A DNA stretch of 58,044 bases, the filler included, from Gonapodya sp. JEL0774 (Eukaryota), in the NCBI GenBank assembly GCA_027604505.1. It is 6 parts of 6 records of this genome, joined end to end, with 100 filler letters (N's around TTAATTAATTAA, not from the genome) between each part and the next. Parts side by side here need not be neighbours in the genome. Positions count along the whole stretch, not along the records: positions 1 to 9,776 come from JADIIX010000404.1; 5 more parts are not named here. One strand, given 5' to 3'. Shown piece after piece: positions 1-48,567 of the stretch (its first letter is position 1; every line of letters begins with the position of its first letter). The notes under the pieces are model-generated. The model saw only the letters and a list, made by a program, of their open reading frames with translations. It was not told the origin of the DNA and searched no databases. The position numbers and the translations under genes are program-made.

Positions 1-2194
1 AACAAGAATGCTACCCACGGTCTCTTCGAATTTGTTCTCGGGGTAGACGAAGACCGTCAAGATGGGACCGAAAATTTCTATCAAATCAAGGAGAGAATCA
101 CCGTGGGGATTTGGTCAGACACGCGACGAGTGAGACATGATCGAGCGCACGAATCACCACTCACCCTCGGTCATAGATTTGTAATGTGGGTTGGTGGTTA
201 CGATGATAGTCGGGTGCACAAAGTACCCCTGAGAATCGTCACCTGGTCCGCCGAATTGTTTCACATCAATAGAATTCACATCAAACAATATTCGCACCGC
301 GGATTGCGCAGAGCGACAAAGCCCCTTTGATATGACATGACTCACAGATACCTCCGACCAACACCTCCGCGTCCGGCGCAGCCTTGGCGTGCTCAATGTA
401 CGACTTGCACTTGTCGAAGGAGGACTTGTGGATGACGGCCGAGACGAATGTCGAGAAATCTGTCGGGCAGGTGTGGGAACGACAGTCCGGTCGTGAAACC
501 GCAGTATCGTAGGCCAAGATGCAAAATGGTCGTGCTCCCAAACGTAAACCAGAAGCGACGTGCCCTCTCCTCTATACTGAGACTCGTTCCTGTCACTCCC
601 CTCAACGACCCACCTTCGACCCCGCCCACCTTCATCGCCCGTACCCCTTCCACCAACCCTTTCTTGACCTCGTGCCACACCGTATCGGGGACGTACAATC
701 TCGACGTGGCGCTGCACTTTTGCCCAGAATACTCGAACGCGCCGCGGAGGGTGCTGTTGATGGCGGTGGGCAGGTGGGCGGAGGGGTGGATCATGTGGAG
801 GTTCTTGCCGCCGGTTTCGCCGACTTGGAGGGTCAGCGGGAGGGGGTGTGATGGGGAGCGGGAGAGGGAGAGAGAGGGGCACCGTCTTTGGGCTTTAGGA
901 GCAGGGCGAGCTCATCGGAGTACAAGACGCGACGGAGACGTACCGATCCTCGGAAAGTTCCTATACCCATCCAAGTTTCCCGCCACTCGCTTCCACAATT
1001 CCCTAAACACGGAGCTACTGCCTGTAAAATGCAGTCCTGCAAAGTCTTTGCTGTCGACCATGGCGCCGACGACCTGCTCGGCCTCCCCGGGGACGAACTG
1101 GATCACACCAGGCGGTAAGCCGGATTCGTGGAGGATGGAGAGCACGAGGTAGGATGATAGTAGGGAGTTGGGAGAGGGTTTCCAGAGGACGGAGTTGCCT
1201 GAGGTGAGCGTAGAGTGTGGTGGTTCAGCATAAACTGTCGAAAGGCTGATTTGCGTCCGATTACGAGGCGACCCCAAGACATGGAGCAATATTTCGCCAT
1301 TTGACTCGTTGTTTCTACTCACCCATCAACACTGGGGCACCAGCCAAGTTGCCCCCGATGGCCGTAAAATTGAAAGGACTGACCGCCGCGACAAATCCTT
1401 CCAAGGGCCTGTATTCGACTCTATTCCACAGGCCATCTTGCTGAACCGACAGTGGCTGCTGACTGTAAATATCCCTCTGGGCGTAGAGTACGTTGAAGCG
1501 GAAGAAATCCGCCAGTTCGGCGGCCGCGTCGATTTCTGCTTGCCACACAGTTTTCCCTTGGCCCAGCATAGTGGCTGCGAGAAGTTGGTACCGATACTTG
1601 GTGGCCACGAGGTCGGCGGCTTTGAGGAAGACTGCGGCGCGGTCAGAGAACGGGAGCGAGGACCAGAGCTTCTGGGCTTTGAGGGCACCCGGAATGGCTT
1701 GTGAGGTAATAGTGTAGGCGTCGACGGAGTGAGCAGAAGCAAGTAGAGTGTGGTGGTTGTGGGGAATGTGTTGGAGGAGTGGTTGGGAGGTGGATGAGGT
1801 GGAGTGGAGTGTTTCGACGCCATTGACGACAGAGGGGATTTGGATTGGCAGTTGAGAGCGGAGGTCAGCAAGCGCGGACACAAGATTTCCACGGTCTGTG
1901 GAGTTTGGTGGATACGAGCCCTGGAGGTTGATTGGTGTTTGGAGTTGGGGAGGTGGAATGGGTCAATAACATGGAGTTCAAAACGGAGTGAGCAGGCTGA
2001 ACAGAACACAAATCAGTGGAGGGGATGACGTGTGCACAAACCATTGGCTCATTGACGATGTCCGGGAGCGCGAAGAAGCCGAGTTGGGCGGTGCGCGTTG
2101 CAGTGGACTCGTTGCGGGAGTGCGGAAGGGGATGGGGGAAGGAGAGAGGGCAGACGGGACGGGAAACACGTGGGACAACAACGCGCAGAGACAT
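1..2194 (-). CDS. PUT2: Delta-1-pyrroline-5-carboxylate dehydrogenase (ALDH4 family), multi-exon, 3' end outside window
   Basis: Exon translations contain MLGQGKTVWQAEIDAAAELADFFRFN, EYRPLEGFVAAVSPFNFTAIGGNL, WKPSP, FTGSS and catalytic AFEYSGQKCSATSRLYV. ATG at 2194 opens an Arg/Ser-rich presequence-like segment. First GT donor at 2041. Confidence 0.93.
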
Positions 2195-3149
2195 GGCGGC
2201 GCTATATGGAGATGAAATGGAGAGAGTCCGATGTTTTCCCAAATGTTTCGAACGCACCTGTCGGCTAAACTCATATCCGATTACCCTACCTATTTATCCA
2301 TTTGGGAACAGCGTTATGGGCTTTTGAGGAGAGTTTTCCGCATTACTACGATAATCTACGGCGAGCATTCTTAGAAGGTGGATTATCCGACATATAGCAC
2401 CCGGAACAAGTGACTACGTGTCCAATCAACCAAGTAGAGTGCTCACTTGCTGTGGGCAGCCACCTTCGATGCTCCAGCCCAGCTTCACCAAATATCTCAT
2501 AACGTCACAGTTGTTGGCATACGCCTCAGCCTCCAAGGCCACCACCGTTCCTGCTCCTCTCACTTTACCTTCCGATCGTGCAAGTACAAGCCATGTAGGA
2601 CTGCACACACCGACTTGTAAATCGCTTCGACGACCAAGTGTTGCCCAGGTTCGGATCTAAAACATTCTAATACAAAACCAAATTGCCAGGGTACCGGCAT
2701 TGGAGACTTTCGCGGATACCAAGGAGACGCTCTGTCCGATGGGGTGCATTATGAATATACAAGTGAAATAGACGGCTAGAGTCCAACTCTGCGCCTGCTC
2801 ACCTGACCAATAGAGTTGACTCTTCTGGGGAGTCCGGTCAGGTGTTCGCACTAACGCTTTCAGTGGATAAACTGTGGTGGCGTTTGGCGAGGACGATGGG
2901 GAGCTGCGGTTCTATTCCTGTGGAAACAGCTCGTCCACCCCAACCTATCGGTACCAAAACAATCGTAGAGAGTGGAATGGTCATTCTCGAAGATGATGCG
3001 TCAAGGGAGGGAGGCAACGTGGTATGTCTCTAGGAAGGTAACACCGATTTGGTTCCAGGTCCAAAAATGATCCAACCTAAGCGTATCCGAGACTCACCAC
3101 ATAGACGGATCAGCTTATAAAATATCTCTCATCCGTCGCAGAATAGACC

Positions 3150-5271
3150 GCCGTTATAGTTGTTCCGACAACAGGTTTCTCGTCACCCGAGTCCAGAGGC
3201 CGGGCTGAGGTGAACGAGGTGTGATGTCCGTGGAGAGGGGACAAAAGGGTCGAAGTGATGGAAGCGGGGAGGTGGACATAACATCGTCAGTGGGGGCAGT
3301 CTCGAGTTTCTTTCCTTTCGCGGTCCGCGTGTCATGCATGCCGACGAAATTCATCTCGAATCTACGTCCAGTACTCATCCAGTACAACGACATCCCACTT
3401 TCCGTCATTCCCCGTCGTTGAATCCAATCCATCAATATATTCAACCCGCGGACACGAGCTTCAATCCGAATCCGTCCGCCACTGCGGATCTCGCACTCAC
3501 CTTATGCTCTGAGCAGATATGTGCAGCTCTGCCTGCACCTACACCACGACCTAGTAGTCCCCTAAGGCCTACACCGACGGGTCGCGTGAAAATGCTCGAT
3601 CAAGGAGAACGTTGGACGGGGGCGGGTCTGTGATGTAGGAACGAGAGGCCGACGGAACATATGTGCAGGAAAAGGGTTAAACGGACTTGACTTACCTTCC
3701 CCCAAGGGATCCCGTCTGCACGAGATCTAGTAGTCCCGTCAAGACTCCGCAACCCATACCCTTTGGCTCACCATGCGAGGTTGTGGTGTTCGACCGTCCA
3801 CCCTGTCGGAGATTCCCCCCATGACGGTCTCCGGGTCAGCCGTCCACGCCACCGTAATTTCAACTGACTGACCAGCACACCGTGTGACTGCACTGTCCTG
3901 AAATTACTCGACACCTGATGTCTCGTGCCAGAAACGGCCCGTCCCACTTACCATCCTCACCACTGCCCCGTCATCACTTGCCTCAGCGCTCGCTCGCACT
4001 TAGTGGCCCCAAAGTGGTGATGAGGGTTTGGAGCGGTCGGTGGAGGAGGGGATGCGGATGAGGAAGATCACGATGTGAAGGACTGTCGAAGAGAAGCACG
4101 GTGAAACTCGGATGGAGTCCAGAGATGTTAAAACACACCTTGAGGATCAAAATGCATCCGCCGATCTGTAACTTCCAGCGCACCTCAGGTCGTGGTTGGA
4201 TTTGGAGCAGATCATGCATGTCACTCGGGTAATGAGCTGCGTGTCGACGGAAATGTTTGATTGTGAAAGGAAAGACACGGCTTCGTGAGGTGTGGTCGGC
4301 GGGTGCGAGATTTGTCGGTACGGAAATTGATAGGGGGATGATGGAAAAACCGGATACAGATTTCAAGGTGACAAGGAGAGGCAAGATACCGGTAGGATCT
4401 AAGACCGTGAGAAGAAAACACGACTTTGAGAGTGTGAGCGACACGTGCCTGCTTTGTTTTTACACCGCTTCCTTGCATCGTCTCCCGTTGTTGCAGTCAC
4501 ATTAAAGGGGGTGCTCATCCTGTCGCCTTCCCGCGCCACTGTCCACCACTAAGCTGCCTCGTCCGTCATCATGCCCATGATCCGAGTTTAACGTTTCCCG
4601 TCGAGGAACATCCGCTCTCCACTACAGCACTCACCAATTGCTCTGAAGTCCGACTGGTGGACATCCCCGCCAACCGCATCTCCACGACCTCGTAGCAGCC
4701 AAGACAAACGAGTAATAGTGACGTCCAACTGCGAGGAAGGTGAGTTGGGGAACCGACTGTGCCGTGGACACGAGGGAGTGGGAACGGCAGGTGGAGGAAG
4801 TACGCGAGGGAAAAGTACGGGAAGCGATGTGAGGCTCACCGGGTCGATTGGAGAAATAACGAGGCTACAAAACGAGATGCGGCGATGCATGTTCTGCTTT
4901 CGAGTGCGACAATAAAGGTTCCGTGATGGAGGAAGGGGCGAGCGAGAGTGGGGGGAAACAGAGAAGTATGAGAGGGGGAAGAGGGAAAAGAGCGGAAAAA
5001 CACAAAAGAGCTCGCTCAATTCAAGTAGAAAACTTACCGAGGCAACGGATTTTGTCGGTGGGACCATTGCGGGACGTGTCGTGACTGGTTCGCCCACATA
5101 CTTACACTTCTACGACACTGTCTCAGAGAACAACATCTCAGATTTCATTCTCTCAAGTCTCTCCGACTGACTTCTCTCAGGTGCAAGTCCTGAATCTTTT
5201 CCTGTACTTTCATTTTCTGATCTGATCTGATCTGATGACAAATATCTCAATTTCGAAAGTATCTGTGATTT
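3150..5271. mobile_element. Probable degenerate insertion or TE-derived segment that truncates the HeLo gene
   Basis: HeLo similarity stops abruptly at about 5272. An AT-richer stretch with (TCTGA)4 follows at 5216-5235. A 279-bp segment (4828-5106) has LTR-like ends TGTAAG...CTCACA on the minus strand. No TSD, RT or transposase motif was recognised, and the left boundary is a guess. Confidence 0.3.
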
Positions 5272-5352
5272 GTAGTTGAAGCATTCTAGACAGGTGTTGA
5301 AGGTGGCGGCGATACCGACAGCGCCTGAGACGATTCCGAAAGCGTCAGCCAT
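5110..5352 (-). pseudogene. Truncated HET-S/HeLo-domain effector; only the first ~27 codons are homologous
   Basis: MADAFGIVSGAVGIAATFNTCLECFNY aligns without gaps to the HET-S N-terminus as recalled (MSEPFGIVAGALNVAGLFNNCVDCFEY). After Y27 the ORF runs into unrelated sequence and stops at 5110. Confidence 0.75.
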
Positions 5353-5676
5353 GATAAAGGGCGATGATAATCCTACTGTGACTGGGAAACGATTGCTCTG
5401 TGCAGTTTGGTGGGTGGGATGGAGGTCAAAGTAACTGCGCCACCTGAGGTCATCCTCAGCAAGTTCAGTCGCGTGACTCTTTCCAAGGACTGCGAACGGG
5501 AGAAGCTGTCGGGCCTTGTTGGTGTCGATCCCACTCCTCCGTCTGCTCTGAAGTGATGTGGATGGGACCGTGTCCCTTTTGAATTCCTTACCACACGGCC
5601 TTCTAGGCTCTGTGCCTCACGGCTCCCAAAACTACCACTCGCACTCCCCCACTCCGAATCCCTTCCCTTCTTGGAT

Positions 5677-8600
5677 ATGGCGATGTCCGACACCGCTACT
5701 GCTGCTGAACCACACCTTCAGAGTCCGTCGCTATCTCCGCAAATAGTGAATAATATCACCTACTCAGTAGGGGCCCAGTACATTGACGGCAATGCGCGTT
5801 TACACATGGGCAATTCTATCCACCAAGGCTCGAGGTAAGCTCGACCATTCAAGGCTCCGCGTGCTTACTGTCCTTACCTTTGACCGCTGTAATATCATGA
5901 ATGCCATCAGTGCTTCACAATCCAAAGTTGGCGCGACTCCTGGCTCCTCCCCGCCCCACTACTACATTCCCTTTTCGAGGAACAAACAGTTTGTGGGCCG
6001 GCGCGACGTACTCGCCACTTTGAAAAGAAAACTCTTCGACAATAAGGACTGTCACAGTGTATCTCTCCTGGGACTGGGTGGTGTCGGGAAGACGCAGATC
6101 GCACTGGAGTTTGCGTATAGTGTAGAGGACACATATAAAGATTACTCAATCTTTTGGTTTCCTGCACTGAGTATGGAGAGCTTTGAGCAGGCATGCAAGG
6201 AGGTAGCTATAAAAGTTGGGATCTCTCATATGATAGGGGAAACAGAAGACGTGAAGGAGGTTGTCATGCGGTATTTGAGCGAGGAGGCAGCCGGGCGGTG
6301 GCTCTTGATTGTGGACAATGCCGATGATGCAGATACTGTGTTTCCCAAGCAGGGACGCGGTATTCATGACTACCTTCCACACAGCAAACACGGACTCCTT
6401 CTGTTTACAACCCGCTATGGAGAAATGGCAGATGGACTAACGGAACATCATTTCATTGACGTGGAAGGAATGAGTCACGAAGACGCCACAGAACTATTCA
6501 GGAACTCTGTCCAACCCAAACACAAGCTCAACGACAATTCGAGCTTAAGAGAGCTATTGAATGAGCTCGCATACCTTCCACTGGCGATCTCTCAGGCAAC
6601 CTCTTTCATTAACGTTAAACGAGTCACCATAAAAAAGTACTTGGAAAAGATGCGTGCAATTAACGAGGAACAAGTGATTAAGCTCCTGGATGACACAAGT
6701 TCTAAGAAATCTCAGAAATCAGTAGCAACAACGTGGTTAATTTCGTTTGGGCAGATGTCCAAGGAAAGTCCAAACTCTGCAAAGCTTCTTGCGTTCATGG
6801 GATGTGTAGAATGGAAGGCGATCCCTCAAAGTATTCTGCCAACGGAACCAGAAGAGGACATAGACACAACCATCGGCATACTGAAATCGTACGCTTTTGT
6901 GTCTTCTCGGGAGGTACAGGGCTCAGAGGAGGAACGTTACGATCTCCATCGCCTCGTACATCTGGCAGCACGGAACTGGCTACGTGGGCGAGTAATTGAT
7001 GATGCTCTCTCACAGAAGGAGACCCTCTTTTCCAAAACGATGAAAGAGGCGATCAAACACATCTCAAAGATATTTCCAATAGACGAATGGCAAAATCGAG
7101 AGCGATGGAGGGAGTACCTTCCACACGCTTCAAAAGTTCTCAGTGAGGAAGATGTCAAAGAGCTCACTGAGAAGTACGATCTGTGCCTCAAGGTCGGGCG
7201 ATGTCTGATCAAAGATGGAAGAGGAAAGGACGCAATCCCTGTACTCGAAATATGCCTCAAAGGAAGGCAAGATGTCACACAACATTCTCTGCTCTTGCCC
7301 CGGAGTAATTTCAAGGAGAACAACGTTGGCATGCCTTCTACCTCAAGTACGACTCGGGGCGGCTGGTCTCCGCCCCCCATTTCGAGCTTTCAATGGGGAC
7401 AGCAGGACCGACAAAGTGAAAAATTATCACCAGTTGTTGCAGCCGTGCAAAAAGACAAGTCGCAAGATGAAACTCTCGTGCTGGAAGCGCGGTATGCACT
7501 CGCCCTTGCCTGCTTTTCTGGTGGACAGGCGGTCAGAACGGTGAACATTCTGGAAGAGATGATCAAAACCAGACAGAAAAGATCAAAAAAGGAGGACAAA
7601 AGTCTGGAATCACTGGAGTGGCAGCTCCACCTTGGTAGAGCCTACCTTGCCTGCAACCGCCAGCACGATGGCAAGAGAGTGTTTGAGTATGTGGGAAAGT
7701 TGTCTCCGGATGGTCACCCTCTCAAAGCCTTGGCAATCCACGAGTTTCGAAACATTGAAAAGAGGAGTGAGTGAGTTATTTTTATCTACCAACGTCTGAT
7801 CTCACTGGGTGACTGTTTCAGGGAAATGGATGGACACCATCAGCATCGACAGCATGATAAATGCCATGTCAAACTCCTCCAATGCGAACACTCTTAGTTT
7901 CAAAGGTGAGACAATTTGGTCCACAGTGATATTTTGCTGTTTCGTTGCATGGGGACAAGCGCCATGGCAGCTGACTATCATGCGACATTTACGTACATTT
8001 TCTTCGTGATTGTTCTAGATCGAATTATTGGTGTCGTGGGTGCACGGGCGCTTGCTCATGCGCTGAAGCAGGGCACGGTGACTTATCCTTTAACAAAATT
8101 GGATCTCTCAGGTGCATATGAGTAGATTGCCATATCTCGCCGGAGTGCTTCCGTACTCCAATGGATGCCTCTTCACATCTTAGGAAGTTCCGTTGAAGTT
8201 GAAGGACTGCAAGCCCTTGGCGACGCACTAGCAAGAACCACTACGCTGATTGAACTGAATCTTGAAGGTGAAACTCCTTGAAGGATGCGTCGGGAACGGC
8301 GAAGGCAGCAGCGGGAACAACATTCTCACATCTTTGACCCCACCAGACAACGTTTTGATTGGCGAAAAGGGTGGGAACATACTCAAAGAAGCCTTGAAGG
8401 GCCTCGCATCCCTTGAGAAGCTCAATTTGAACAGTGAATGCACAACGTCGACCCTTTCTCCTCCGAAACCTTCCCTCAAGCTCACGCTACACATCTTACA
8501 ATTCCTTGCAACCACTCACTTCTACCCTTCTGCTCTGACTCATCGCACTCACTTCCCAGAGAACGGGATCGGACCTGAGGGAGTGAAGGCCCTCGCGGAC

Positions 8601-9661
8601 AGGCTCAAGGATCTGACCAGCCTGACCACGTTGCATCTCGCAGGTGCGTTGGAGCGGCGGAGGGGTGTGGTTTTCGGTGGTGTGGTGGCGTGTGCGACAC
8701 GCGACTCACGGTCTCTCGGTCTCTCGGTCCGATCGTTCCGATTGACTTTTTCGATCGATCGATGTCTTCGATGGTTCCAATGTCTACCATTGTCTAGGGA
8801 ACAGCATCGGACCCGAAGGAGCCAAGGCCCTCGCGGACAGGCTCAAGGGTCTGACCAGCCTGACTTCATTGGATCTCGGATGTGAGTTGGAGCGGCGTGA
8901 GCGGGGGCGGGGGGTGCGGTGCGGTTTTCGGTCACTCACTGTCTCTCTGTGGTGGCGTGCGCGACACGCGACTCACGGTCTCACGGTCTCTCTCGGTCCG
9001 ATCGTTCCGATTGACTTTTTCGATCGGTCGATGTCTTCGATGGTTCCATTGTCTACCATTGTCTAGCGAACAGGATCGGAGACGAGGGAGCCAAGGCCCT
9101 CGCGGACGGGCTCCAGCATCTGGCCAGCCTGACCACGTTGCATCTCGCACGTGAGTTGAAGCGGCGGAGGGGTGTGGTTTTCGGTGGTGTGGTGGCGTGC
9201 GCGACACGCGACTCACGGTCTCACGGTCTCTCTCGGTCCGATTGTTCCGATGTCGATGGTTCGATCGGTCGATGTATTCGATGGTATCATTGTCTACCAT
9301 TGTCTAGTGAACAGGCTCGGAGACGAGGGAGCCAAGGCCATCGCGGACGGGCTCAAGGGTCTGGCCAGCCTGACCAAATTGGATCTCGGATGTGAGTTGG
9401 AGCGGCGTGAGCGGGGGCGGGGGGTGCGGTGCGGTTTTCGGTCACTCACTGTCTCTCTGTGGTGGTGTGCGCGGCACGCGACTCACGGTCTCACGGTCTC
9501 TCTCGGTCCGATTGCTCCGATGTCGATGGTTCGATCGGTCGATGTATTCCATGGTTCCATTGTCTACCATTGTCTAGCGAACATTATCAGAGACGAGGGA
9601 GCCAAGGCCCTCGCGGACGGGCTCCAGCATCTGGCCAGCCTGACCACGTTGGATCTCGTAG
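5677..9661 (+). CDS. NLR-like STAND protein: N-terminal HET-s-like amyloid motif, NB-ARC, TPR-like helices, >=9 RI-type LRRs; 3' truncated by contig end
   Basis: Exons 5677-5834, 5911-7766, 7822-7905, 8019-8111, 8184-8267, 8347-8433, 8560-8643, 8798-8881, 9067-9150, 9308-9391, 9578-9661. All are GT-AG and in frame (2782 nt, 927 codons plus 1 nt). NB-ARC motifs: PFSRNKQFVGR, Walker A GLGGVGKTQ, Walker B WLLIVDNAD, LLFTTR, YLPLAI, YDLHRLVH. The NB-ARC call is strong; the link to the LRRs rests on intron 7767-7821. Confidence 0.8.
5761..5820 (+). other. HET-s-related amyloid motif (R0-like) YSVGAQYIDGNARLHMGNSI
   Basis: Ungapped register match to the HET-s prion-domain repeats as recalled: R1 NSAKDIRTEERARVQLGNVV and R2 NSVETVVGKGESRVLIGNEY. 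Shared features are S-V, G at position 10, A-R-hydrophobic-x-hydrophobic and G-N. Confidence 0.7.
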
Positions 9662-9776
9662 GTGAGTTGAAGCAGCGGAGGGGTGTGGTTTTTAGTGGTG
9701 TGGTGGCGTGCGCGACACGCGACTCACGGTCTCACGGTCTCTCTCGGTCCGATCGTTCCGATGTCGATGGTTCGAT
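8560..9776 (+). repeat. Tandem array of near-identical LRR exon+intron units (two-exon period ~510 bp)
   Basis: 84-nt exons start at 8560, 8798, 9067, 9308 and 9578. Introns alternate 154/185/157/186 nt and all four complete ones end in TGTCTACCATTGTCTAG. Confidence 0.95.
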
Positions 9777-9876
9777 NNNNNNNNNNNNNNNNNNNNNNNN
9801 NNNNNNNNNNNNNNNNNNNNTTAATTAATTAANNNNNNNNNNNNNNNNNNNNNNNNNNNNNNNNNNNNNNNNNNNN
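9777..9876. other. Artificial contig linker (N44-TTAATTAATTAA-N44)
   Basis: Six-frame-stop 12-mer at 9821-9832 inside Ns; the identical 100-bp spacer occurs five times in the window. Confidence 0.98.
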
Positions 9877-11818: not shown

Positions 11819-13367
11819 CTACAAAGGAAAACTATTTTGCAACGGAATGATGCTTTCTTTTGTTTCTGTCTTATAGCCTTGGAGGAATTTATAAAAGGAA
11901 GTTCCCCCTTGATGAGAAAAAGAGTTCAATTATTCAGCAGCTGTTGCATAGTAGTGCAAACGCATAGTCAAAGATTACTTGCCAGTACCCGTCAGGAGAC
12001 GCGCGAGATACTTGTGAGCCAGAGAGATGTGGGCGTTCCTCAAGCTGCACAGGCGTTCGAGGCACAGATTGTAAGCTTTCGCGACCTCGTCCGTGCCCTC
12101 GTTGACCAGGTTAACGGCAAACACGCGAATCGACGGGCCCTTCTCAAGCGCGCAAACAAAGCGACGGTGCTCTTTGAAGAAGTATGGTCGCATCTGTACG
12201 TAGAAATCGTCGGTGTGCAGCACACCAAGGACGATGTCGAACGCCTGGAACAGTGGGCTTTGTCCCCCGGTTCCCCCAGAAAAGATCTGAGTCTGTAACA
12301 CATCGAGAGAACATTTATAACGGACATGTTTCCCGGAAACTCGGTCGATGCGAGTCCTAACTTTTGATGTCACACCCTCGAAAATGATGTGGTGCCACGA
12401 CCCGAGGTAGGGGCGAATCGCTTGAACGAAGTCATCAATATCCGTGCCCTGTCGTGCGACAATATTGTTGAGGACAGAACGAGCAAACCAGAGCGTCAAG
12501 GCGGACACATCTCAAAAACGATCGTGCAATCAACCCACTTTTTGCATTTGCCCCATGACATCCGTCACCTGGCCGAGAGAGTCGTGCAGTGCAGTAAGGT
12601 TTGCCAGGACCGTTGCGGCGTCATGAGCGTTGGCGCCCTCCATCGCCAGGACTGCACACTCTAGGGCTCTGGCGCCCTTCGCCTCCATCGCTGCGTGCAC
12701 CTTGTAAAACCAGGATTCGGATGCAAGTCCCGTGAAGGTAAATTCACAGATAATGTCCTCCACGTTGGCGATCGGTCCAGCGGGTGTGAAACAATTCCAC
12801 AGCACAACTGAGGCGTATGAAGCGACGGGGTTCATTCCCAATCTTTCGGCGATCGCGGCTAGTGGAATTGCCAGCACTTTAGGGAGAACCTGCGTCAAAC
12901 GCAGGCGCCGCAGTGTTTCCCAATTATTTGGTGTCTCACAAAAAAACATCGAAACCGGAATAACGGACCTTTGCAACCTCCTCGCCCACTGCAAATATGT
13001 AGGCAGCTGAAACCATCGACAGCACCAAATAAGCACGCTTGAGATCGCAATCAGATTCCAAGAGGTCAGAATCAGCGAGGTCGAGCTGCGGCCATCGTCA
13101 GCAGGAGATGATCTATGATCAGTTGTTCTGCCATCTCACTAAATGTTGTTCCTTTGTGCTCACCGCATGCACTTCTTGCCGGAGACGTCTTTCCTTGAGG
13201 AGATCCGGCATCCTCTGTGCAAGATGTTCGTATACGACAAAAGGAGAACTTTGAAGGGGCTGGAGAGCTGATTCAGTGAGAAAACCTGTCCTGGGTGAGA
13301 CTGGGGGAGAGGCGACAAGCGGCGTCGATTGGGTGTTCTGGGCAGCTCGCAAAAGACTTCTGGGCAT
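11819..13367 (-). CDS. Indoleamine 2,3-dioxygenase family protein, multi-exon
   Basis: VSPRTGFL, LGMNPVASYASVVLWN, FTFTGLASESWFYKVHAAME, IRPYL, SGGTGGQSPLFQAFDIVLGV, MRPY..EHRRF, RNAHISLAHKY (heme-ligand His region) and terminal GTG|GTSFYKFL. Start codon is approximate. Confidence 0.9.
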
Positions 13368-19496: not shown

Positions 19497-19596
19497 NNNN
19501 NNNNNNNNNNNNNNNNNNNNNNNNNNNNNNNNNNNNNNNNTTAATTAATTAANNNNNNNNNNNNNNNNNNNNNNNNNNNNNNNNNNNNNNNNNNNN
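19497..19596. other. Artificial contig linker
   Basis: N44-TTAATTAATTAA-N44. Confidence 0.98.
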
Positions 19597-25922: not shown

Positions 25923-28791
25923 ATGCCCACGGCCCCACGACGAAATCCCAAAACTTCGGGCGAGATGGATCAACCTGGAACAGCGGCTGTGACGCATCTC
26001 GGTGTCGTTCCTGGGGATGCCTCGGTAGGTTTTGAGACGCTCTCCCTCGCGATAAACGCCCGCCCGTCGGCGGCAAGACAGCTCTAAGATCGAATGAAAT
26101 CCATTGGATTGCTGAAATGGAAAGGATAGTCCTCCAAATTCATTTGTGGAACAGTGGAGTGAAACTAGTGTTTGATTGATTCAAAAACCAGCAGCAACTT
26201 CAAGCTTTCATGTTTTGTATCCGTCTCTTGACGACGTGATACCATAGACATCATGCACTAACTCCGACGATCTCTAATTGTGTCACGTGCAGGTTCTTTC
26301 TCGCAGTCACCGTGTTCTCATTCCTGCCTTCAACCCGGTCTCGTCTTCTCTCACAGTTGCACTCGGGAAACACAAAAAGTCAGCGAATCTGTCCAAAAGC
26401 GAAACGGGATTCTTTCCAGAATTCGACAACTCGGTCTTCATTTGCGATAGCTCCTCCAACAAAGCCAGCAGCGTAAGCGATGGTGACATCTTGCCCGAAA
26501 CCGCCGCTCTCTACGACGCTGGTGTTGCTTTGCTCGATGGCATCACCGGCATTCAACGAAACTCCACACCTGGGGATCCCGTTCAACATAGCACTGTCCA
26601 TCCCGCCAATGTCCTCCGTCTCTCACGTCAGTTCCTCAGAGATGTGCATGATTCAGTGACAGCTCTTTCAAATCGTTATCTCTCCCTCTCGCGGTCGACA
26701 ACCAGCGACCAGCTTGAACGGATCCGAGTCAAATCACAGCTTTCTCGAACCGTCGCCAGTCAACTCGTGTGGGGTCTCGCCGAAGCGGCTTACTTGGAGC
26801 CAGCTGCATTGAAGGCATTGGCGGATGAGAATATTGAAGAGCATTATCCCTCTCCCGACGACATCGATGTGGATGAGGATCGAGATGTACCCACGCACCC
26901 CTCAGATCGTCACAACGAACAGAATGGACTCGAAGATACGGCCTCTGACGAAAGTATGGATGAAACCCACCCTCTCCCTGCGACTAAGCGACGAAAACTG
27001 GCTACTGCAGCACCCTCGGGGGCTGGGTCCACACCCTACCGCCTTCGACCACCGAAACGTTCGAGCGCCACGCGGTTCTCCTCTGGCTCGACTGATCCAC
27101 TCTTATCACACACACTTTCAACTCTCCTGAACTTTTGCCTTCCTCTCAACCCATCGGACCCCCGCCTCCGGCTCATTCCGACGCATGAACTTTCCACCTG
27201 GAGGTCTGTCCTCGTTCCGTTATTCCGTGGTGACATGGAATCCACCGCAAATGCCCTCTCCCGCACTCTCGCGCAACCCAAGCGTGCCTTACCAGCCGCT
27301 GTCCTACCCGTGCTGCGAGATCTCTACGAGGCGATCAACTCCTTCCCAGTCTGGTCACCAACCATGACAACAGAAGCTCACGAGAACCGCCTGTCCGCAT
27401 GGCGGGGCACATTCGCCATTGAGAACATGGCGGATCCCATTGAGCTCCACCGAAGGCTCGAAAGCGCGACGTCAGGCAGATCCCGCGATATCAGTGCTGC
27501 TGAACAATGGATTGAACCCATCGCCGCTGTTGCAGGAATTATGTCTGGTCACTTGGAACCTATTTCCAGCTATGGAGACACCTGGCTGGACTCATTGTCC
27601 GCTCTTATCATCTTTCACCCACCACCCTGCACCGTTCCTTCCGATTTACCTTCCCTCACCCGCACCCTTCTCGCCGCGTACAATGGACCACCGCTAGGCT
27701 CTATTTTGCCTGAAATGCCACTGAGACGGTTGGCGTTGGGACAGCCTGGTGCGGCTATTGCAGCTTTGGTCAATGTAGATCCATACATAGCCGGGTTACT
27801 CGCTACGGTGCTTCAAGCTGCCCATATCCCACTCGACCCACCACCTTCGGCGCAATTTTCCAATGTTACAAAACGCGCACGGTCGAATCCTACTTCTTTC
27901 CGTCCTACCTCTACAGACGCAGCAACGCTCGCCCTCCTCTCCACCATCTCCCTTCTCATATCCCAACCCTCCACGTATCGGTATGCAGTTTTGCACATAC
28001 CCCACCTACCCTTGCCCATCGCCACATCGTTCGCAGAACTAGTTTTACCTAGGCTTGTCGGACGAGGAAAAGTTTCCATAGATATGGTGGTGGAAGCTGC
28101 GAGGATGTCAGGGGCGTATGACGTTGCCGGAGATGTGTGGGCCGCGGAGTACGCAAGGTGCGTAGGACGGGGCGATTTGAGCTCCGCTCTCCGCCACGCC
28201 GCTGCTGCTGCAGATGATGGACGGGTTGAGTTACTGGATACGGCGGTGACTGTGGTATTGCAGTGGTACGCAGAAGCTCATGCAGGACATGCCGCCACAT
28301 CGGGGTGGCCAGCACTCGCGCCCATAGTCGGGGTATTGGACTCGTTGCCTCGTGTGCAAATCGCCGCTCACCCCGGCATGGTCTTCTTAGCGTCATGGTG
28401 CGGTTACGTAAAGCTTGCCGCGGCTGAACCGTCCCGACAGGCCGACGCGCTCGCAGCCGTTGCTTTGTGTGCGCGCATGGCATTGAATGACACTGTTTCG
28501 TCGAGTGGTGTGAGCCCCGTGCCCAAGGAGTTCCTTGGTTGCTTGATCTCCGAAATTTCAGTGTCCCTAGCGCACGTGCGAACCGCGGGATATGAATCCC
28601 TCACATCTGCTGAAGCTACTTCGGTGTTGAGCGTAGTTGAGGAGTTTAGTGAGTTTGTTAAGAGAGGCGGTGACATTTGGGGATGTTCTATATCTGGAAA
28701 ACACGAGGAATGGAAGAAGTGGGTCAGAGCTGTACGAGAAGGGGTAGCGGGAGTGGATATCACTGCAACAGCTGGATCCCGACGGCATTGA
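25923..28791 (+). CDS. Nucleoporin Nup85-like alpha-helical protein
   Basis: 837-codon ORF with segments resembling the Nup85 pattern (LFRGDMESTANAL, INSFP...RLSAWR, GIMSGHLEPISSYGDTWLDSLSALIIFHPP, TYRYAVLHI). A short first exon from ATG 25923 is inferred. Recognised from memory, not aligned. Confidence 0.55.
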
Positions 28792-29195: not shown

Positions 29196-29295
29196 NNNNN
29201 NNNNNNNNNNNNNNNNNNNNNNNNNNNNNNNNNNNNNNNTTAATTAATTAANNNNNNNNNNNNNNNNNNNNNNNNNNNNNNNNNNNNNNNNNNNN
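29196..29295. other. Artificial contig linker
   Basis: N44-TTAATTAATTAA-N44. Confidence 0.98.
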
Positions 29296-29845: not shown

Positions 29846-31634
29846 ATGTCCGTCGTAATAGAGACATCAGTGGGAGATATCGTCGTGGACCTTCTTGTGG
29901 AGCAATGCCCTCGTTCCTGTACCAATTTCCTCAAGCTTTGCAAATCCAAGTACTACAATTGGTCGCTGTTTCACACAGTCCAGAAGGATTTCATCGCTCA
30001 GACTGGGGATCCATCAGGAACGGGAAAGAGCGGACAGAGTGTGTGGGGGTGAGTGGATTGCAACTTGTTTGATTCTTTCGATCATCAGCTGGATCACCTG
30101 TTTCGAATTCGGTTGGTTTGTCTTGCACGGGAACGTTACGCACTGTTCTTCAACACATACATTGCTAGTCTCATTCACGGAGAGTCTCGCCGACATTTTG
30201 TCCCCGAGATGCCGCCTAAGCTCAAACACAAGAAACGCGGAGTCGTTTCCTTCGCCTGTGTCATTCCGCCCGCAGACCCAAATTCGTCCGTCCAGCCGGT
30301 CCCGCTCGCAGCTTCTCAATTTTTTATCACTCTGGGAGCTCAACTAACGGATCTGGACGGGAAACATGCGCCATTTGGGGTCGTAGCTGAGGGTTTGGAG
30401 GTTCTAGAAAAGTTCAACGACGCTTTGGTGGATGACAACGGGAGACCGTACATTGACATTCGAATACGACATACAATTATCATCGATGATCCCTTCCCTG
30501 ACATGGAGGGGCTGAGAGTTCCAGAAGGAAGCCCGGAACCAACTGAAGAGATGCTGAAGGTGAGCCACCGCTTCATGTTGGCAGAGAGAACACTGCAGTT
30601 ATTTGGTTTTGTTCATCGCGGCTCCATCACAACTTCCCTGTTTTTTTGTTGCTCGGCATGTGGAGTCCACGCGCCTGTCGGACACGGACGCCCTCAAACC
30701 GACCCTCCCACCAGAGGAAGAGGAACTAGCACACCAACGGCACGAAGCTTCGGCACGCGCTCTCACTCTGGAGATGCTTGGTGATCTTCCCTTCGCCGAG
30801 ATAAAGCCTCCAGAGAATGTTCTCTTCGTTTGCAAGTTGAACCCGGTTACCCGGGACGAGGATTTGGAGTTGATTTTTTCACGGTTTGGAACCATTCGTA
30901 GGTGAGGGAATCATGAATAGTTTTCCCGGGCTCCACAATGGCTGAAAGGCTCGCTTGAAGCTGCGAGATTCTCCGAGACAAGAAAAGCGGTGACTCCCTT
31001 CAGTACGCTTTTATTGAATTTGACGAACGCGAGGCTTGCGAGCGTGCCTACTTCAAAATGGTGCGTTGTCCGCGCTGCGATGCCATTCTTTGTGCAATAA
31101 CTGTGTTTCACCTTGAACCTTTCTGTCCCTACCTATTAGGATAATGTCCTCATAGACGACCGCCGAATTCACGTGGACTTCTCACAATCGGTGGGCAAGC
31201 TTCACAAAGAGTGGATGTGTGAGCATACTTTATCTTGAAGATCGTTTGCAAACCCGTGGTACTCATGTTTGTCACGACCATTCCCCATTGCAGACGCACG
31301 ACAACAGAAGGGCAGAGGAATAACTGAACTGCAAAAGAAAACACGTTATCGGGAGGAAGAGGACACGGCAGATCAATACGATATGGTTTTTGAAGGTCAG
31401 GATGGTGAAGAGCGGAAAGCTGCAGGTGGTGGAAAGTTTTCTGGTAGCGGAGCTCATCAGTCGGATCGAAAACCGGACCTCCAAGCAGTTCGTTCGGATG
31501 GGAGTAAGCGCGCCCACGACCGAGGCGAGTCACAGAAAGATTCAAGAAGGCGGCGGAGGAGTAGAAGCAGAAGCCGTGAGCAGGAGAGTCGAGGAAAGCG
31601 ACGGAGAAGCAGAAGCCCATACTACAGGAGTTAG
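29846..31634 (+). CDS. PPIL4: Cyclophilin-RRM-RS protein (PPIL4/Cyp59/Rct1), multi-exon
   Basis: [113 protein letters not shown] and an RS-rich tail. Confidence 0.95.
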
Positions 31635-35899: not shown

Positions 35900-38884
35900 A
35901 TGTCCAACGTCGGGGACACTACACCGCCACGCTTGAAGCTGCCATCATGGAACAATCTCAGTCTTCCGATCATTGACATCCGACTTCCTGGTCTGAGTTG
36001 GGCTCAGTCCGACCAAACCACACCTGTCTCCCTTGATTCTCCAAGTACAGCCAAACCCTCTAATCCTATTGTGCCCGCTTCTCTCTCCGTGGCACTCGCC
36101 GGTATGAGAACTGCAATTCCGTCTGATCCGTCTCCCGCTCGAGTGAGACCTACAGTCGCATTCCCGTCACGAAAGGATCCGAAAAGACGAGAGAACGATC
36201 AAACCAATGTGGCAAAGAATCCGTTTCTGCGCATACTGCAATCGCATCATCTCGATCTGGTGGCGCTGCTTCTTTCAAACAACCTCATTCTCTGTCTGCC
36301 ACCGCCAGCTCTTGCTTCTCGGATGCTTTGGGCAATGGGGAAGCACTGGCCGATTGAAAGGCGGGCCGAGCTTTCTGAATCTGCTCTGAACACACTAGAA
36401 AAGGATGCTTTAGCCTCTCTGGATAGTAGACTGCCTATCGAGTTCTGGAGTGAGCTTTCTCTCAAGATACTCTCCGTGATGATCCACCTTATTTCAACAG
36501 ATTCACCCATACAGGTTCACATATTGTGCGACCGCCCACCTCATTGATATCTAATTCGTCGAATAATTCCTCTACAGTACTAGGCAGAATTTCGTATCTA
36601 TGTGTCACTCTTGAGAGCGAGACTCTGGAACTCCTGTTCTCGGCCTTCCCCCGGCAGGTTGTGACCGGCAGGGGGTTTTCCCGACCCGGCAAAAGACTCG
36701 CTATTGTAGCCGATGAGCTGTTTACGGACGACTACGGTCGCTCGTTTAGCGTGTACGTCCTTGCAGGTCCACTGAGAGTTCCTATCACCAACGAATCAAA
36801 TAAGGACGACAATTCGCACGAGGGCGACCGCGAATCCCTTCCTTTGATATCTGAAAATCTAGAATCGGACCAGTATGCAGGACCACAAGGTCTCGCCCGC
36901 GTTTTCGCCCTTTATCCCACCAAGAGCTCCGCCAGGGCAACGTTGCAGAAGCTCTCGAGTCATTTGCAAAGCTTCACCGACCGAATTATGCCACTTTCTA
37001 CCCTAAAAGAGCTTCGTGAGCTTTCACACAAGGTTCAGGAGGAGTGCATGGATATGGTATTGAATTTGGATCGAGAGGGGCTTCAACGAATGCTCGAGCT
37101 TTGCGAACTGGAAGAAGCCCAGTTTTGGGCGGTCTTGGAAAGGTGCGTTGGGCAATAGTACCAGATAGTACGAATGTACGACAGATTCACATGAATGAGG
37201 AACCGCAAGTTTCGTCGCGGAACAGACGTACGACATTCTTTTCTTCAAGATCAGTGGAATTTTTCGGCGTGAGGATCAGTCGCTCCAGTCTGAAGCCGAG
37301 AAGCTTCGCTACCTTGACGTTCGCAATTTGGATCTCGATGAAGCTCTTGGTGAGTATCCAAAGCAATGTCCGAACATCGGCGGAGCCAATGCAAATATTC
37401 TTAGCAGTATTCACTCTCCGTTTTGTTTGTGCAGGTGCTGTTTTGTACCGTGCTGTGCGAATATTTCCCGCTGTGACGTTCCTCCGCACGCCGGGGGAAA
37501 AACTACATGCACTAGCAGCAACCATGCGAGCACTCGTTGACAGTTCGGCAGCATATCGGTGGTGGAGGCGTATGAATTGGTCTCAGGCAGACGTTTCGTC
37601 GATTCAACTCGACCGGGACTTGTTTGATTTGCCGAGCAGCGAAACCTTCACGTCGCCTTTGCCACAGGACTCTCCCAAAGCGACAAAACTCTCTTCGGAC
37701 GATCTTGTCCCTCTCCTCATTCTTGCAGTAGTGCGCATAACGGAGTCAACTGCAGCCCAACTCATCGCCACGTTCCGGTATATGGCTGACTTCGCGACCT
37801 GGAACGACATTGAACAGGGTGAATGGGCGTTTGTGCTTGCAACAATGGAAAGCGCATTAACTTGGTTAGTCTCCGGTCGCACCACACAAGATATCGACTC
37901 TCAAGGCGAACCAGATCATGTCACACCTCGAACAGATAGTCAGGAAAGACCTCATCAGACTGTTAGTGGGTCGACTTCATTGATCTCGGAGTCACCCAGC
38001 AATAGATTGCAGTCCAGTCGAATGGACATAGAGGAGGTATCGCTCTGGAATGGTCGCTGGTGGGATGCTGTAAAGATGGGGGACTTGCACAAGTGTCAGG
38101 AAATTGTGTCTGGGTACGCTGCGGCGCACGCGGATAGATTCCCTTCTTTCACGGCTGCTCGCGATGACCAAGGAGATGACGCTGTCATAATAGCTACGCG
38201 ACATTCCCGATCGCGCCTTGTTGAGTTTCTTGTCAGTCCATCAACAACTGAAGCAGGGCTACCGCTACCGATTCACTCGGTCAACTTCGCCTACGAAACG
38301 CCAATCCACCTGGCGGTGTCAAATGCCGATATCGAGACTCTCAATGTTTTACTTGCTTATCTACCTCCGTGTCATGATAAGTACCACCCGTATGTAAATG
38401 TTCCGAACGCAGCCGGTTTAAGTCCACTTCTCATTGCTGCTACACTCGAGGAAACGTCTTCACTCAAGATTGTCAAAGTATTACTACGGAGTGGCGCCAA
38501 TCCGAACTGTGTCAACCTTGATGGTCGCACCGCTTTCCACCTCGGCCATGCTTCACTTATGCCACTGCTGTATGAGTATGGTGGTCGATGGGATCTCAAA
38601 GCTCTTGATAACCTCCCGCCACTTCTTTACCGATGCATTGAGAAGGACGTTGCTGGTATGATAGGATTACTAGATGTGGAACGCCGTGCGAGGATTGATG
38701 GGAACTCAGAGTTCTGCTCTATAGACTGGAACGCTGCTGATCTCGGAGGCCGTTCTGTCTTGCACTATATTTCGCTTCGGGGGGGTGCAGAATATGAAAC
38801 AATCTTGCAGATGATTCTGGATATGGGACTCGCACATCTCGATACGGACGGCAATCATTCTGGGCGATCCCAATCGAAATCACC
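35900..38884 (+). CDS. VPS9-domain plus ankyrin-repeat protein (VARP/ANKRD27/Vrl1-like), 3' truncated
   Basis: VPS9 motifs RTPGEKL, SSDDLVPLLILAVV and GEWAFVLATMESAL, followed by ankyrin repeats (ETPIHLAV, GLSPLLIAA..LLRSGANPN, GRTAFHL, GRSVLHY). Confidence 0.85.
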
Positions 38885-38984
38885 NNNNNNNNNNNNNNNN
38901 NNNNNNNNNNNNNNNNNNNNNNNNNNNNTTAATTAATTAANNNNNNNNNNNNNNNNNNNNNNNNNNNNNNNNNNNNNNNNNNNN
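38885..38984. other. Artificial contig linker
   Basis: N44-TTAATTAATTAA-N44. Confidence 0.98.
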
Positions 38985-39770
38985 GCACTGGCCCAGTCGA
39001 ATCTTGGCGTGATGTACGAGGACGGGCGGGGCGTGCAGAAGGATGAGGCGGAGGCTGTGAAGTGGTACAGGAGGGCCGCTGACCAGGGACATGCATGGGC
39101 CCAGTCATATCTTGGTTTCATGTACGAGATCGGTTGGACCGTGCAGAAGGACGAGGCAGAGGCTGTGAAGTGGTACAGGAGGGCCGCAGACCAGGGGAAC
39201 GCAGTTGGACAAAACGGTCTCGGGTGGATGTATGCCACTGAACGCGGAGCATCACAGGATGTACATGAAGCGAAGAAACTCTTCACAACAGCTGCGGATC
39301 AGGGGGATGCCGGGGCCCAGTTTAATCTCGCATACCTGTTTCACTTGCATGGTCTCGGTGGGTGTGAGCGTGATGTGGGAATGGCGGAGGAACTTCTTAA
39401 AAGATCAGGTGATAGTGAGCGGACGTTTGCTCTTGGAATTCTCCATGAGCGTGGGTGGGGCGGAAGAGCGAAGGATGAACAAACAGCAGTGGAATACTAT
39501 TTGAAAGATCTCCGGTGCGCGGCAAAGACTTTACTAGCCGGCATGTACGAGGACGGTCGAGGAGGATTAGATCAGGACCTGGGGACCGCCGTGCGCTTGT
39601 ACACAGAGGCACTAGACCAGCGGGACGTGGTCGCTGCAGTGTCGCTCGGTCGAATGTACGAAAAGGGACTCGGAGGGTTGGCAAAGGACATCAACAAGGC
39701 GATTGAGATGTACGAGTTGGCGGGGACGTGGGAGGCGCGAGTCGCGTTAGAGCGCCTGCGGGGGTCGTGA
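38985..39770 (+). CDS. SEL1-like repeat protein, 3' part; paralog of the gene ending at 47403
   Basis: AQS.LG.MY..G..VQKDEAEAVKWYRRAADQG repeats; C-terminus AGTWEARVALERLRGS. Confidence 0.92.
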   Translation, partial: ALAQSNLGVMYEDGRGVQKDEAEAVKWYRRAADQGHAWAQSYLGFMYEIGWTVQKDEAEAVKWYRRAADQGNAVGQNGLGWMYATERGASQDVHEAKKLFTTAADQGDAGAQFNLAYLFHLHGLGGCERDVGMAEELLKRSGDSERTFALGILHERGWGGRAKDEQTAVEYYLKDLRCAAKTLLAGMYEDGRGGLDQDLGTAVRLYTEALDQRDVVAAVSLGRMYEKGLGGLAKDINKAIEMYELAGTWEARVALERLRGS

Positions 39771-43990: not shown

Positions 43991-44378
43991 CACTCGAGTC
44001 GAAAGTTCAATTATTAAACCGGTGATCTGTCGAGGATTGGCTTCGAATGTCAGATGGCTGTATTGCGAAAATCCTCACAGAGCTGAAACGGGGGACCATT
44101 CTCAAACTGCTGATTAGTGCAACACAACAACACATGAACATCCTTTTTGGACGCATTAATGCTTGTAATTTGGCCACCACCAGCTATTATGCCGATTTAA
44201 TTGTCACACGACGAATGTATGAAGTATAAGAGATTTCCTGGATGGGAGCCAATCGTGTTGTGCTTTGGAGGTGTGTCCCATTGAGGAGGACCACAGCAGC
44301 CGGGATAAGTCACACCTCCCTCTCAAGCCACACCACAACACGCTGTGTCTCCAAGACAGTCCCCACGAGGCCGGCACG

Positions 44379-48467: not shown

Positions 48468-48567
48468 NNNNNNNNNNNNNNNNNNNNNNNNNNNNNNNNN
48501 NNNNNNNNNNNTTAATTAATTAANNNNNNNNNNNNNNNNNNNNNNNNNNNNNNNNNNNNNNNNNNNN
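48468..48567. other. Artificial contig linker
   Basis: N44-TTAATTAATTAA-N44. Confidence 0.98.

Follow-up and report, generated by a model that had tools for sequence, protein, structure and literature searches.

A predicted NB-ARC receptor gene with an amyloid-like motif, degenerate TPRs and exon-sized leucine-rich repeats in a chytrid-labelled assembly

The locus and its exon chain

Here we examine a 58,044-nucleotide stretch of DNA (the window) from the genome assembly GCA_027604505.1 of Gonapodya sp. JEL0774, and within it a predicted gene on contig JADIIX010000404.1 that places an NB-ARC nucleotide-binding (NB) domain ahead of an array of leucine-rich repeats (LRRs). The gene is confined to window positions 1-9776, the sole continuous stretch around it, the rest of the window being made up of separate contigs spaced by N's. 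A preliminary description of this DNA had proposed that a long open reading frame (ORF) is spliced onto the LRR exons to give an NB-ARC receptor with both tetratricopeptide repeats (TPRs) and LRRs. The long ORF is 100% identical in a protein search to a deposited protein, P0001, labelled Gonapodya sp. JEL0774, a monoblepharid chytrid. Read from the sequence, 11 exons across 5677-9661 on the plus strand encode 927 codons with zero stops, and the 927-aa spliced model is open throughout, as had been claimed. The 3' end of the gene is missing, since the contig stops at 9776, inside the intron that follows exon 11. The features of the locus are as follows, RI denoting ribonuclease inhibitor.

5272-5352 (-): HET-S-type HeLo gene remnant, first 27 codons (N-terminal helix) only
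5677-5834 (+): exon 1, with ATG at 5677; 52 codons plus 2 nt
5755-5817 (+): HET-s-related r0-like amyloid motif, model residues 27-47
5835-5910 (+): intron 1, 76 nt, phase 2, GT-AG, frame kept
5911-7766 (+): exon 2, NB-ARC followed by two to three degenerate TPR-like hairpins
6071-6094 (+): Walker A motif, exon 2
6302-6328 (+): Walker B motif, exon 2
6944-6961 (+): MHD-like motif, exon 2, reading LHR as in relatives
about 7163-7766 (+): the two to three degenerate TPR-like hairpins, predicted as helical, with a low-confidence insert
7767-7821 (+): predicted intron 2, 55 nt, phase 1, enclosing an in-frame TGA at 7772-7774
7822-7905 (+): exon 3, 84 nt, cap/linker joining TPR to LRR, aligning with the tail of P0005
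8019-8111 (+): exon 4, 93 nt, degenerate RI-like LRR
8184-8267 (+): exon 5, 84 nt, degenerate RI-like LRR
8347-8433 (+): exon 6, 87 nt, degenerate RI-like LRR
8560-8643, 8798-8881, 9067-9150, 9308-9391 and 9578-9661 (+): exons 7-11, 84 nt each, single-LRR exons
9662-9776 (+): start of a further repeat intron, interrupted by the contig end

The splice sites of predicted intron 2 are those previously described: a donor GTGAGT from 7767 and an acceptor TTTCAG to 7821 bound a 55-nt phase-1 intron with the TGA inside it, and the distance from that stop to the acceptor, earlier put at about 50 nt, measures 47 nt. Exons 3-11 are all GT-AG, phase 1 and stop-free. The nine phase-1 exons of the preliminary description are present, with the corrections that the nine include the first 84-nt exon and that two exons are of other lengths (93 and 87 nt); both repeats quoted there are present in the 927-aa model. 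The deposited P0001 uses the junction 7766^7822 as well as the next one, 7905^8019, and misses exon 1, as it begins within that exon in a different frame.

Exon 2 carries the NB-ARC domain at about 6011-6745 (Pfam E=3.3e-14, 53.2 bits vs a cut-off of 23.5), which is far stronger than the match to NACHT, at 25.4 bits vs 26.7 below its own cut-off. A GLPL-like motif is also present, the nucleotide-binding motifs are intact, and the predicted fold resembles the STAND-TPR structure 6mfv and Apaf-1, STAND referring to signal transduction ATPases with numerous domains. The TPR call rests on paralog alignment and predicted helical hairpins, because P0001 has no Pfam TPR at E<=0.01 and a custom TPR profile gives the gene model only 1.3 bits. 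No coiled-coil (CC), TIR or RPW8 N-terminus was found by Pfam in exon 1 or in P0001. In a domain scan the three-part architecture expected of the spliced model was recovered in part, with NB-ARC above its cut-off, LRR_6 found exon by exon below it, and no Pfam TPR.

The LRR_6 matches of exons 7-11 (E 1.8e-4 to 6.8e-3) each stay under the curated cut-off because each exon splits the profile. A custom LRR profile trained on 944 repeats from outside proteins marks exons 4-11, of which exons 4-6 are marked weakly (E 1.9e-5, 1.4e-4 and 0.046); exon 3, the cap/linker, contains no LRR repeat. The preliminary description took 84-nt LRR exons to be typical of animal NOD/CIITA-type genes; on this point PMC5536018 yielded one 84-nt deletion in CIITA. 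Exons 7-11 are 80-93% identical to one another and their introns 84-97%; exons and introns were tandemly duplicated together in an alternating two-unit pattern, and the last five LRR exons are recent exon-plus-intron duplications. Among these five repeats, six concave positions carry 39 of the 87 pairwise amino-acid differences, an excess with p=0.0035 against all 28 positions and 0.039 against the 17 non-framework positions, while the LRR framework residues are conserved and every splice site is kept. Such concave-face variation fits diversifying selection, a signal that is suggestive and short of proof because it comes from only five related repeats. G+C content at third codon positions is 0.78 in these young exons (8560-9661) vs 0.52 in the NB-ARC-TPR exon, hinting that they may have had a different source or undergone repeated conversion.

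Evidence that the NB-ARC and LRR exons belong to one gene comes largely from paralogs. P0005, a PNP_UDP-NB-ARC-TPR paralog on another contig, has a tail homologous to exons 3-4: the 59 residues past the junction align with it at a score of 79 that none of 5000 shuffles reached (for exon 3 alone, 10/5000 shuffles reach its score), and a single BLAST alignment to P0005 crosses the junction with E=5e-14. The junction sequence itself is unique, non-repetitive and mirrored in P0005. Three further deposited models, P0003, P0004 and P0130, combine NB-ARC/AAA, TPR and LRR_6, and the AlphaFold prediction for P0004 has a regular 28-residue alpha/beta array following the TPRs, with a low-confidence link between. 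In the 927-aa model the LRR array likewise lies C-terminal to the NB domain in one open frame. The fused NB-ARC-TPR-LRR reading first put forward for this locus accordingly agrees with the deposited model, with conservation across the junction in P0005 and with the architectures of P0003, P0004 and P0130, and we infer that the 55-nt intron is spliced to give one product carrying both NB-ARC and LRRs.

An amyloid-like motif and a broken HeLo partner

Two features that were absent from the preliminary description connect the locus to fungal amyloid signalling. Exon 1 appears to encode an r0-like motif of the HET-s type. The published definition of r0 is a single 21-residue motif with G19, R/K15 and hydrophobic residues at positions 5, 8, 10, 16 and 18 (PMC4518210); the motif in exon 1 fits at positions 5, 10, 15, 16, 18 and 19, which is six of the seven defining positions, and has at position 8 a Q that matches one r0 row in the supplement of that paper. 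The pattern, composed post hoc, matches once among the 116,084 residues of the six-frame translated window and never in 200,000 exon-1 shuffles. Independent support comes from an in-frame r0-like motif at the N-terminus of P0130 (score 43, with 0/300 shuffles as high) and from P0004 and P0008, where compatible motifs are out of frame at the deposited starts, the same as in P0001, against a background of 9 passing windows among 4705 starting at Met, these paralog rows counted in. All three deposited models, P0001, P0004 and P0008, begin out of frame within the r0-like exon and continue through intron 1, which hides the amyloid motifs of this family from proteome surveys.

The second feature is the HeLo remnant, which stands head-to-head with the NOD-like receptor (NLR) gene with 324 nt between the start codons. 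It matches Pfam HeLo below the cut-off (E=2.4e-4, profile positions 1-24 of 205), and its frame extends, with no further similarity, as far as a stop at 5110-5112. All 10 of its 10 phmmer matches are HeLo proteins (57-79% identical), two full-length ones among them being labelled ascomycetes. The top match, P0315 (to window 5248-5352, minus strand), is a HeLo fragment labelled Cladochytrium tenue, suggesting that HET-S-like genes occur in a second chytrid lineage. No other HeLo pieces and no r1/r2 repeats were found on the contig. The head-to-head placement of NLR and HeLo genes matches the nwd2/het-S layout with its effector broken. Among 80 environmental loci, the best of 473 that were confirmed, neither the strict r0 pattern nor a HeLo gene was found (0/80 each), many of these loci having short flanks.

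Relatives, origin and host assignment

The distribution of LRRs was assessed in 195 NB-ARC relatives, 186 of them outside relatives, taken from the best 120 of 3204 and the best 120 of 2093 matches in two length-limited searches. The LRR profile trained on outside proteins matches 4 of the 195, all four from the Gonapodya sp. JEL0774 assembly; no LRRs were found in the 186 outside relatives among the matches listed, nor by the same profile in the 80 environmental loci. TPR number has a median of 7 in the 186 outside relatives and is about 2 in the LRR-bearing paralogs. When the TPR-LRR tail of P0004 was used as a query in a length-limited search, the best 120 of 819 matches included Mortierellales RNI-like proteins and animal NACHT-LRR proteins, with no other named fungal NB-LRR protein among them, and the Mortierellales matches have no Walker A upstream of their LRRs, bar one incidental match. 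P0196-P0311 form a large Mortierellales family of about 1000 residues with an unannotated N-terminal half, 8-20 RI-like LRRs and no Walker A, whose members are possible NB-less receptors.

Within the Gonapodya family, modules appear to have moved between paralogs. The nucleotide-binding domain (NBD) of the gene is closest to P0003 and P0004 (70-73%), whereas P0005 is the nearest relative of its TPR tail (51% vs 25-28%), and N-termini of the PNP_UDP and r0 kinds are intermixed across the tree; these mismatched affinities and mixed N-termini point to module shuffling. PNP_UDP effectors are present in P0005 and P0010, the annotations of P0006 and P0008 show no LRRs, and the deposited model of P0004 is without part of its NBD. 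Beyond the LRRs of P0130, residues 997-1149 form a multicopper-oxidase-like tail that is probably a merged neighbouring gene.

Phylogenetic trees were built from 57-74 or 36 rows picked from the top matches. In a tree that excluded 14 bacterial rows, one long-branch row and two near-duplicates, a branch with support 100/99 splits nine paralog cores from 48 ascomycete and environmental rows, and the family so defined is internally diverse. Bacterial relatives are only 25-32% identical, and once bacterial rows are added the root joins inside the paralog family where long branches meet, so that it gives no transfer direction. A single origin is neither rejected nor established by approximately unbiased tests, either for the family (p-AU 0.34) or for the LRR-bearing subclades (p-AU 0.42). 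Horizontal transfer from Pezizomycotina was considered and not adopted, the family not being nested among the ascomycete rows. Among the matches listed, the NB-ARC side is nearest to ascomycete NB-ARC-TPR proteins without LRRs (35-48% identity), and the LRR side is nearest to Mortierellales RNI-like proteins without a P-loop (43-51% identical to the array, its best matches) and to animal NLRC3. That the two halves have different nearest relatives fits the independent assembly suggested at the outset, and the paralogs probably represent a fungal NLR family in which an NB-LRR layout arose independently.

Composition favours a contig native to the assembly. Its observed/expected TpA ratio is 0.54, vs 0.53-0.62 in the other contigs of the window and 0.80 +/- 0.16 in environmental loci, and its composition match to the five other contigs is 0.65 without the repeat array and 0.47 with it, the maximum in 34 environmental loci being 0.57. 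A rare complex common to Gonapodya sp. JEL0774 and G. prolifera also fits the label (10.1101/2024.01.07.573240). G. prolifera itself is not among the best 120 of 3204 or the best 120 of 2093 NB-ARC matches.

The same contig carries an aldehyde dehydrogenase gene with introns at about 40-2012 (-), whose best match in the PDB is the yeast pyrroline-5-carboxylate (P5C) dehydrogenase Put2; the matches of this P5C dehydrogenase in the Atlas are mostly bacterial fragment clusters. The other contigs hold an IDO gene at 12530-13135 (-), Nup85 at 26278-28791, a cyclophilin at 30053-30784, a VPS9-ankyrin gene at 37020-38884, a Sel1 array at 38985-39770, at a contig start, and a kinase fragment followed by another Sel1-repeat array at 44223-47137. 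Identical 12-base spacers between N runs at 9821-9832, 19541-19552, 29240-29251, 38929-38940 and 48512-48523 mark artificial joins, and the joined contigs, of similar size, are placed in decreasing size order.

Alternative readings, proposed mechanism and significance

Taken together, these features make it probable that the locus is one spliced NLR-type gene, composed of an amyloid-like motif, NB-ARC, a shrunken TPR region and RI-like LRRs, in which the LRRs likely sense non-self molecules and the amyloid-like motif would signal by amyloid templating. Several observations weigh against it. Deposited P0001 ends after the second exon past the junction, reading through the next donor to a stop, and AlphaFold confidence is below 55 past the junction in P0001 and below 50 at residues 627-661 of P0004. 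All of the LRR-fused members are gene predictions from one fragmented assembly, and the five repeats behind the concave-face statistics are not independent samples. The r0 pattern was composed after the motif had been noticed, the motif is unmatched by Pfam, and its similarity to the r1/r2 repeats of HeLo relatives is modest (4, 11, 21 and 161 of 300 shuffles as high). The adjoining effector is broken, and an intact HeLo effector was not found on the contig. On a small home-made matrix the donor at 7767 ranks joint fourth among 92 GT sites and is equalled by the out-of-frame donor at 7771; in-frame ATGs at 7830, 7854 and 7866 in exon 3 could begin a separate LRR protein. Shorter isoforms of 673 aa (intron retained) and 697 aa (donor 7771) are possible. 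These tandem donors and start codons, together with an in-frame TGA only five bases beyond the donor and the LRR-free annotation of P0006 and P0008, are what would be expected of two neighbouring genes, or of one gene whose main products end before separately expressed LRR exons. We regard that arrangement as quite unlikely, given that stop and acceptor lie just 47 nt apart, that similarity to P0005 is unbroken across the junction and that P0003, P0004 and P0130 are annotated as fused; AATAAA and TATA were also not found in 7775-8100, a weak criterion in fungi.

If the fusion is real, its amyloid output may nevertheless be vestigial, the protein acting as a sensor for another NLR (e.g. the PNP_UDP paralogs) or the LRRs serving mainly as an autoinhibitory lid. 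A vestigial r0 is the main alternative to an amyloid-templating mechanism and is consistent with the reduction of the adjoining HeLo gene to 27 codons, with r0 lying at residues 27-47, where NWD2 has it at its very N-terminus, and with the PNP_UDP effectors of P0005 and P0010. We nonetheless consider it unlikely, since an r0-like motif persists across deep branches, in P0130 and apparently also in P0004 and P0008, effectors can lie elsewhere given that 98 of 155 cases showed adjacency (PMC4518210), and concave-face variation suggests binding. A decaying, non-functional locus produced by chance fusion within a birth-and-death family would account for the broken partner gene, the degenerate TPRs with their low-confidence insert and the incomplete NBD of the P0004 model, but is hard to reconcile with 927 open codons, intact nucleotide-binding motifs, a conserved LRR framework and the retention of all splice sites, and appears highly improbable. 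Least credible of all is a contaminant ascomycete contig or a misassembly, in which the gene would not be from a chytrid or the fusion would not exist. In its favour, the closest named outside relatives among the matches listed are all Pezizomycotina, G. prolifera is missing from the best 120 of either NB-ARC search, the HeLo remnant and r0 are ascomycete-like, and the flanking P5C dehydrogenase gives no taxonomic placement; yet the paralog family is internally diverse and stands on its 100/99 branch apart from all ascomycete rows, composition fits the five other contigs, with the repeat array set aside, better than any environmental locus does, the best HeLo match is labelled another chytrid, and the unique junction is mirrored in P0005. 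Even if the contig were a contaminant, the finding of a fungal NB-LRR would stand.

The best reading is therefore that RI-like LRRs are taking the place of the TPR sensor in a fungal NLR of the amyloid-NB-ARC-TPR type, which would be an NB-LRR origin separate from those of plants and animals; a receptor or immune function is likely. In the proposed mechanism, the concave face of the LRRs would bind a non-self or modified-self molecule, the LRR face being taken as the sensor because most variation sits there while the TPRs are few and degenerate. Binding would drive ADP/ATP exchange in the NB-ARC and oligomerisation, as in other STAND proteins, and the clustered r0 motifs would template the HET-s-type fold in a HeLo effector whose gene lies elsewhere, as NWD2 does for HET-S, with the templated effector damaging the membrane to cause local cell death. 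Both the STAND and the NWD2/HET-S parts of this scheme are drawn from PMC12881547 and are inferred for the Gonapodya locus by analogy. As the adjoining HeLo gene is broken, the templating step requires an effector elsewhere in the genome, or else r0 is a relic. Historically, an ancestral amyloid-NB-ARC-TPR/HeLo pair, kin to ascomycete pairs, may have expanded in the Gonapodya lineage, picked up single-exon LRR modules downstream of a reduced TPR array and shuffled its N- and C-terminal modules between paralogs.

The gene can be compared with several known systems. The fungal amyloid-NB-ARC-TPR NLRs and the nwd2/het-S pair (PMC4518210, PMC12881547), of which Sordariales have 68 amyloid-NB-ARC-TPR genes (PMC12258605, supplementary file 10), resemble it in NB-ARC and the adjoining HeLo gene and, as far as these are predicted here, in the r0-like motif and the TPR region; the Gonapodya gene differs in having about two to three degenerate TPRs followed by an LRR array, a truncated HeLo partner and a chytrid-labelled assembly. 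Plant NB-ARC-LRR proteins (ZAR1, NRC, RPP1) have the same NB-ARC and C-terminal LRRs, and the fold matches the NRC1 NB-ARC with a TM-score of 0.71 over the target, but in structural alignments the NB-ARC is only 15-17% identical to that of plants, and the gene has 28-residue RI-like LRRs one per exon, a TPR spacer and no CC/TIR. Animal NACHT-LRR proteins (NLRC3, NOD2) are alike in their RI-like LRR_6 repeats, NLRC3 being among the top LRR matches listed and NOD2 the top Foldseek match of P0004 with a TM-score of only 0.22; here NB-ARC stands in place of NACHT, without CARD or PYD. Brown algal ROCO-LRR and NB-ARC-TPR genes (PMC3341825) share one repeat per exon, exon duplication and diversifying repeats, yet they pair LRRs with ROCO and TPRs with NB-ARC, whereas Gonapodya joins LRR exons to NB-ARC-TPR. 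The Mortierellales RNI-like proteins offer the closest LRR match among those listed but, save the one incidental case, have no upstream Walker A.

The claim that fungal NLRs lack LRRs was sound as a statement of the literature: a 2014 survey found none in 5,616 fungal NLR candidates, with no chytrid matches (PMC4986451), the lack is restated in 2025 (PMC12881547), and the NBS-LRR layout appears absent from fungi in the excerpts of both. A 122-proteome screen that included LRR profiles and G. prolifera found some chytrid NLRs (PMC12258605); no LRR-bearing one is reported in its passages or in those of its preprint, and the term 'LRR' occurs in none of 17 of its supplementary files, among which the kingdom-wide per-species table was not found, so that the screen may still contain such a count. 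No report of an LRR-bearing fungal NLR was found in the literature outside subscription papers, including excerpts of PMC11291939, PMC13449251, PMC10197012 and PMC4053784. An ancestral NBS-TPR layout has been proposed (PMC9815663).

We give an even chance to the broader scenario in which a chytrid lineage built its own NB-LRR family, with the TPR sensor of an amyloid-signalling NLR replaced by exon-sized LRRs, the transition preserved midway, the LRR face diversified by exon duplication, and LRR sensing coupled to HET-s-type cell death. The locus points towards amyloid signalling of the HET-s type in chytrids, a group without NLRs in the 2014 survey (PMC4986451). With its NB-ARC, shrunken TPR and growing LRR array it is a candidate for a further NB-LRR origin caught at an intermediate stage, and since one genome holds both LRR-bearing and LRR-free paralogs, comparing them makes the question of how and why LRRs replace TPRs testable.

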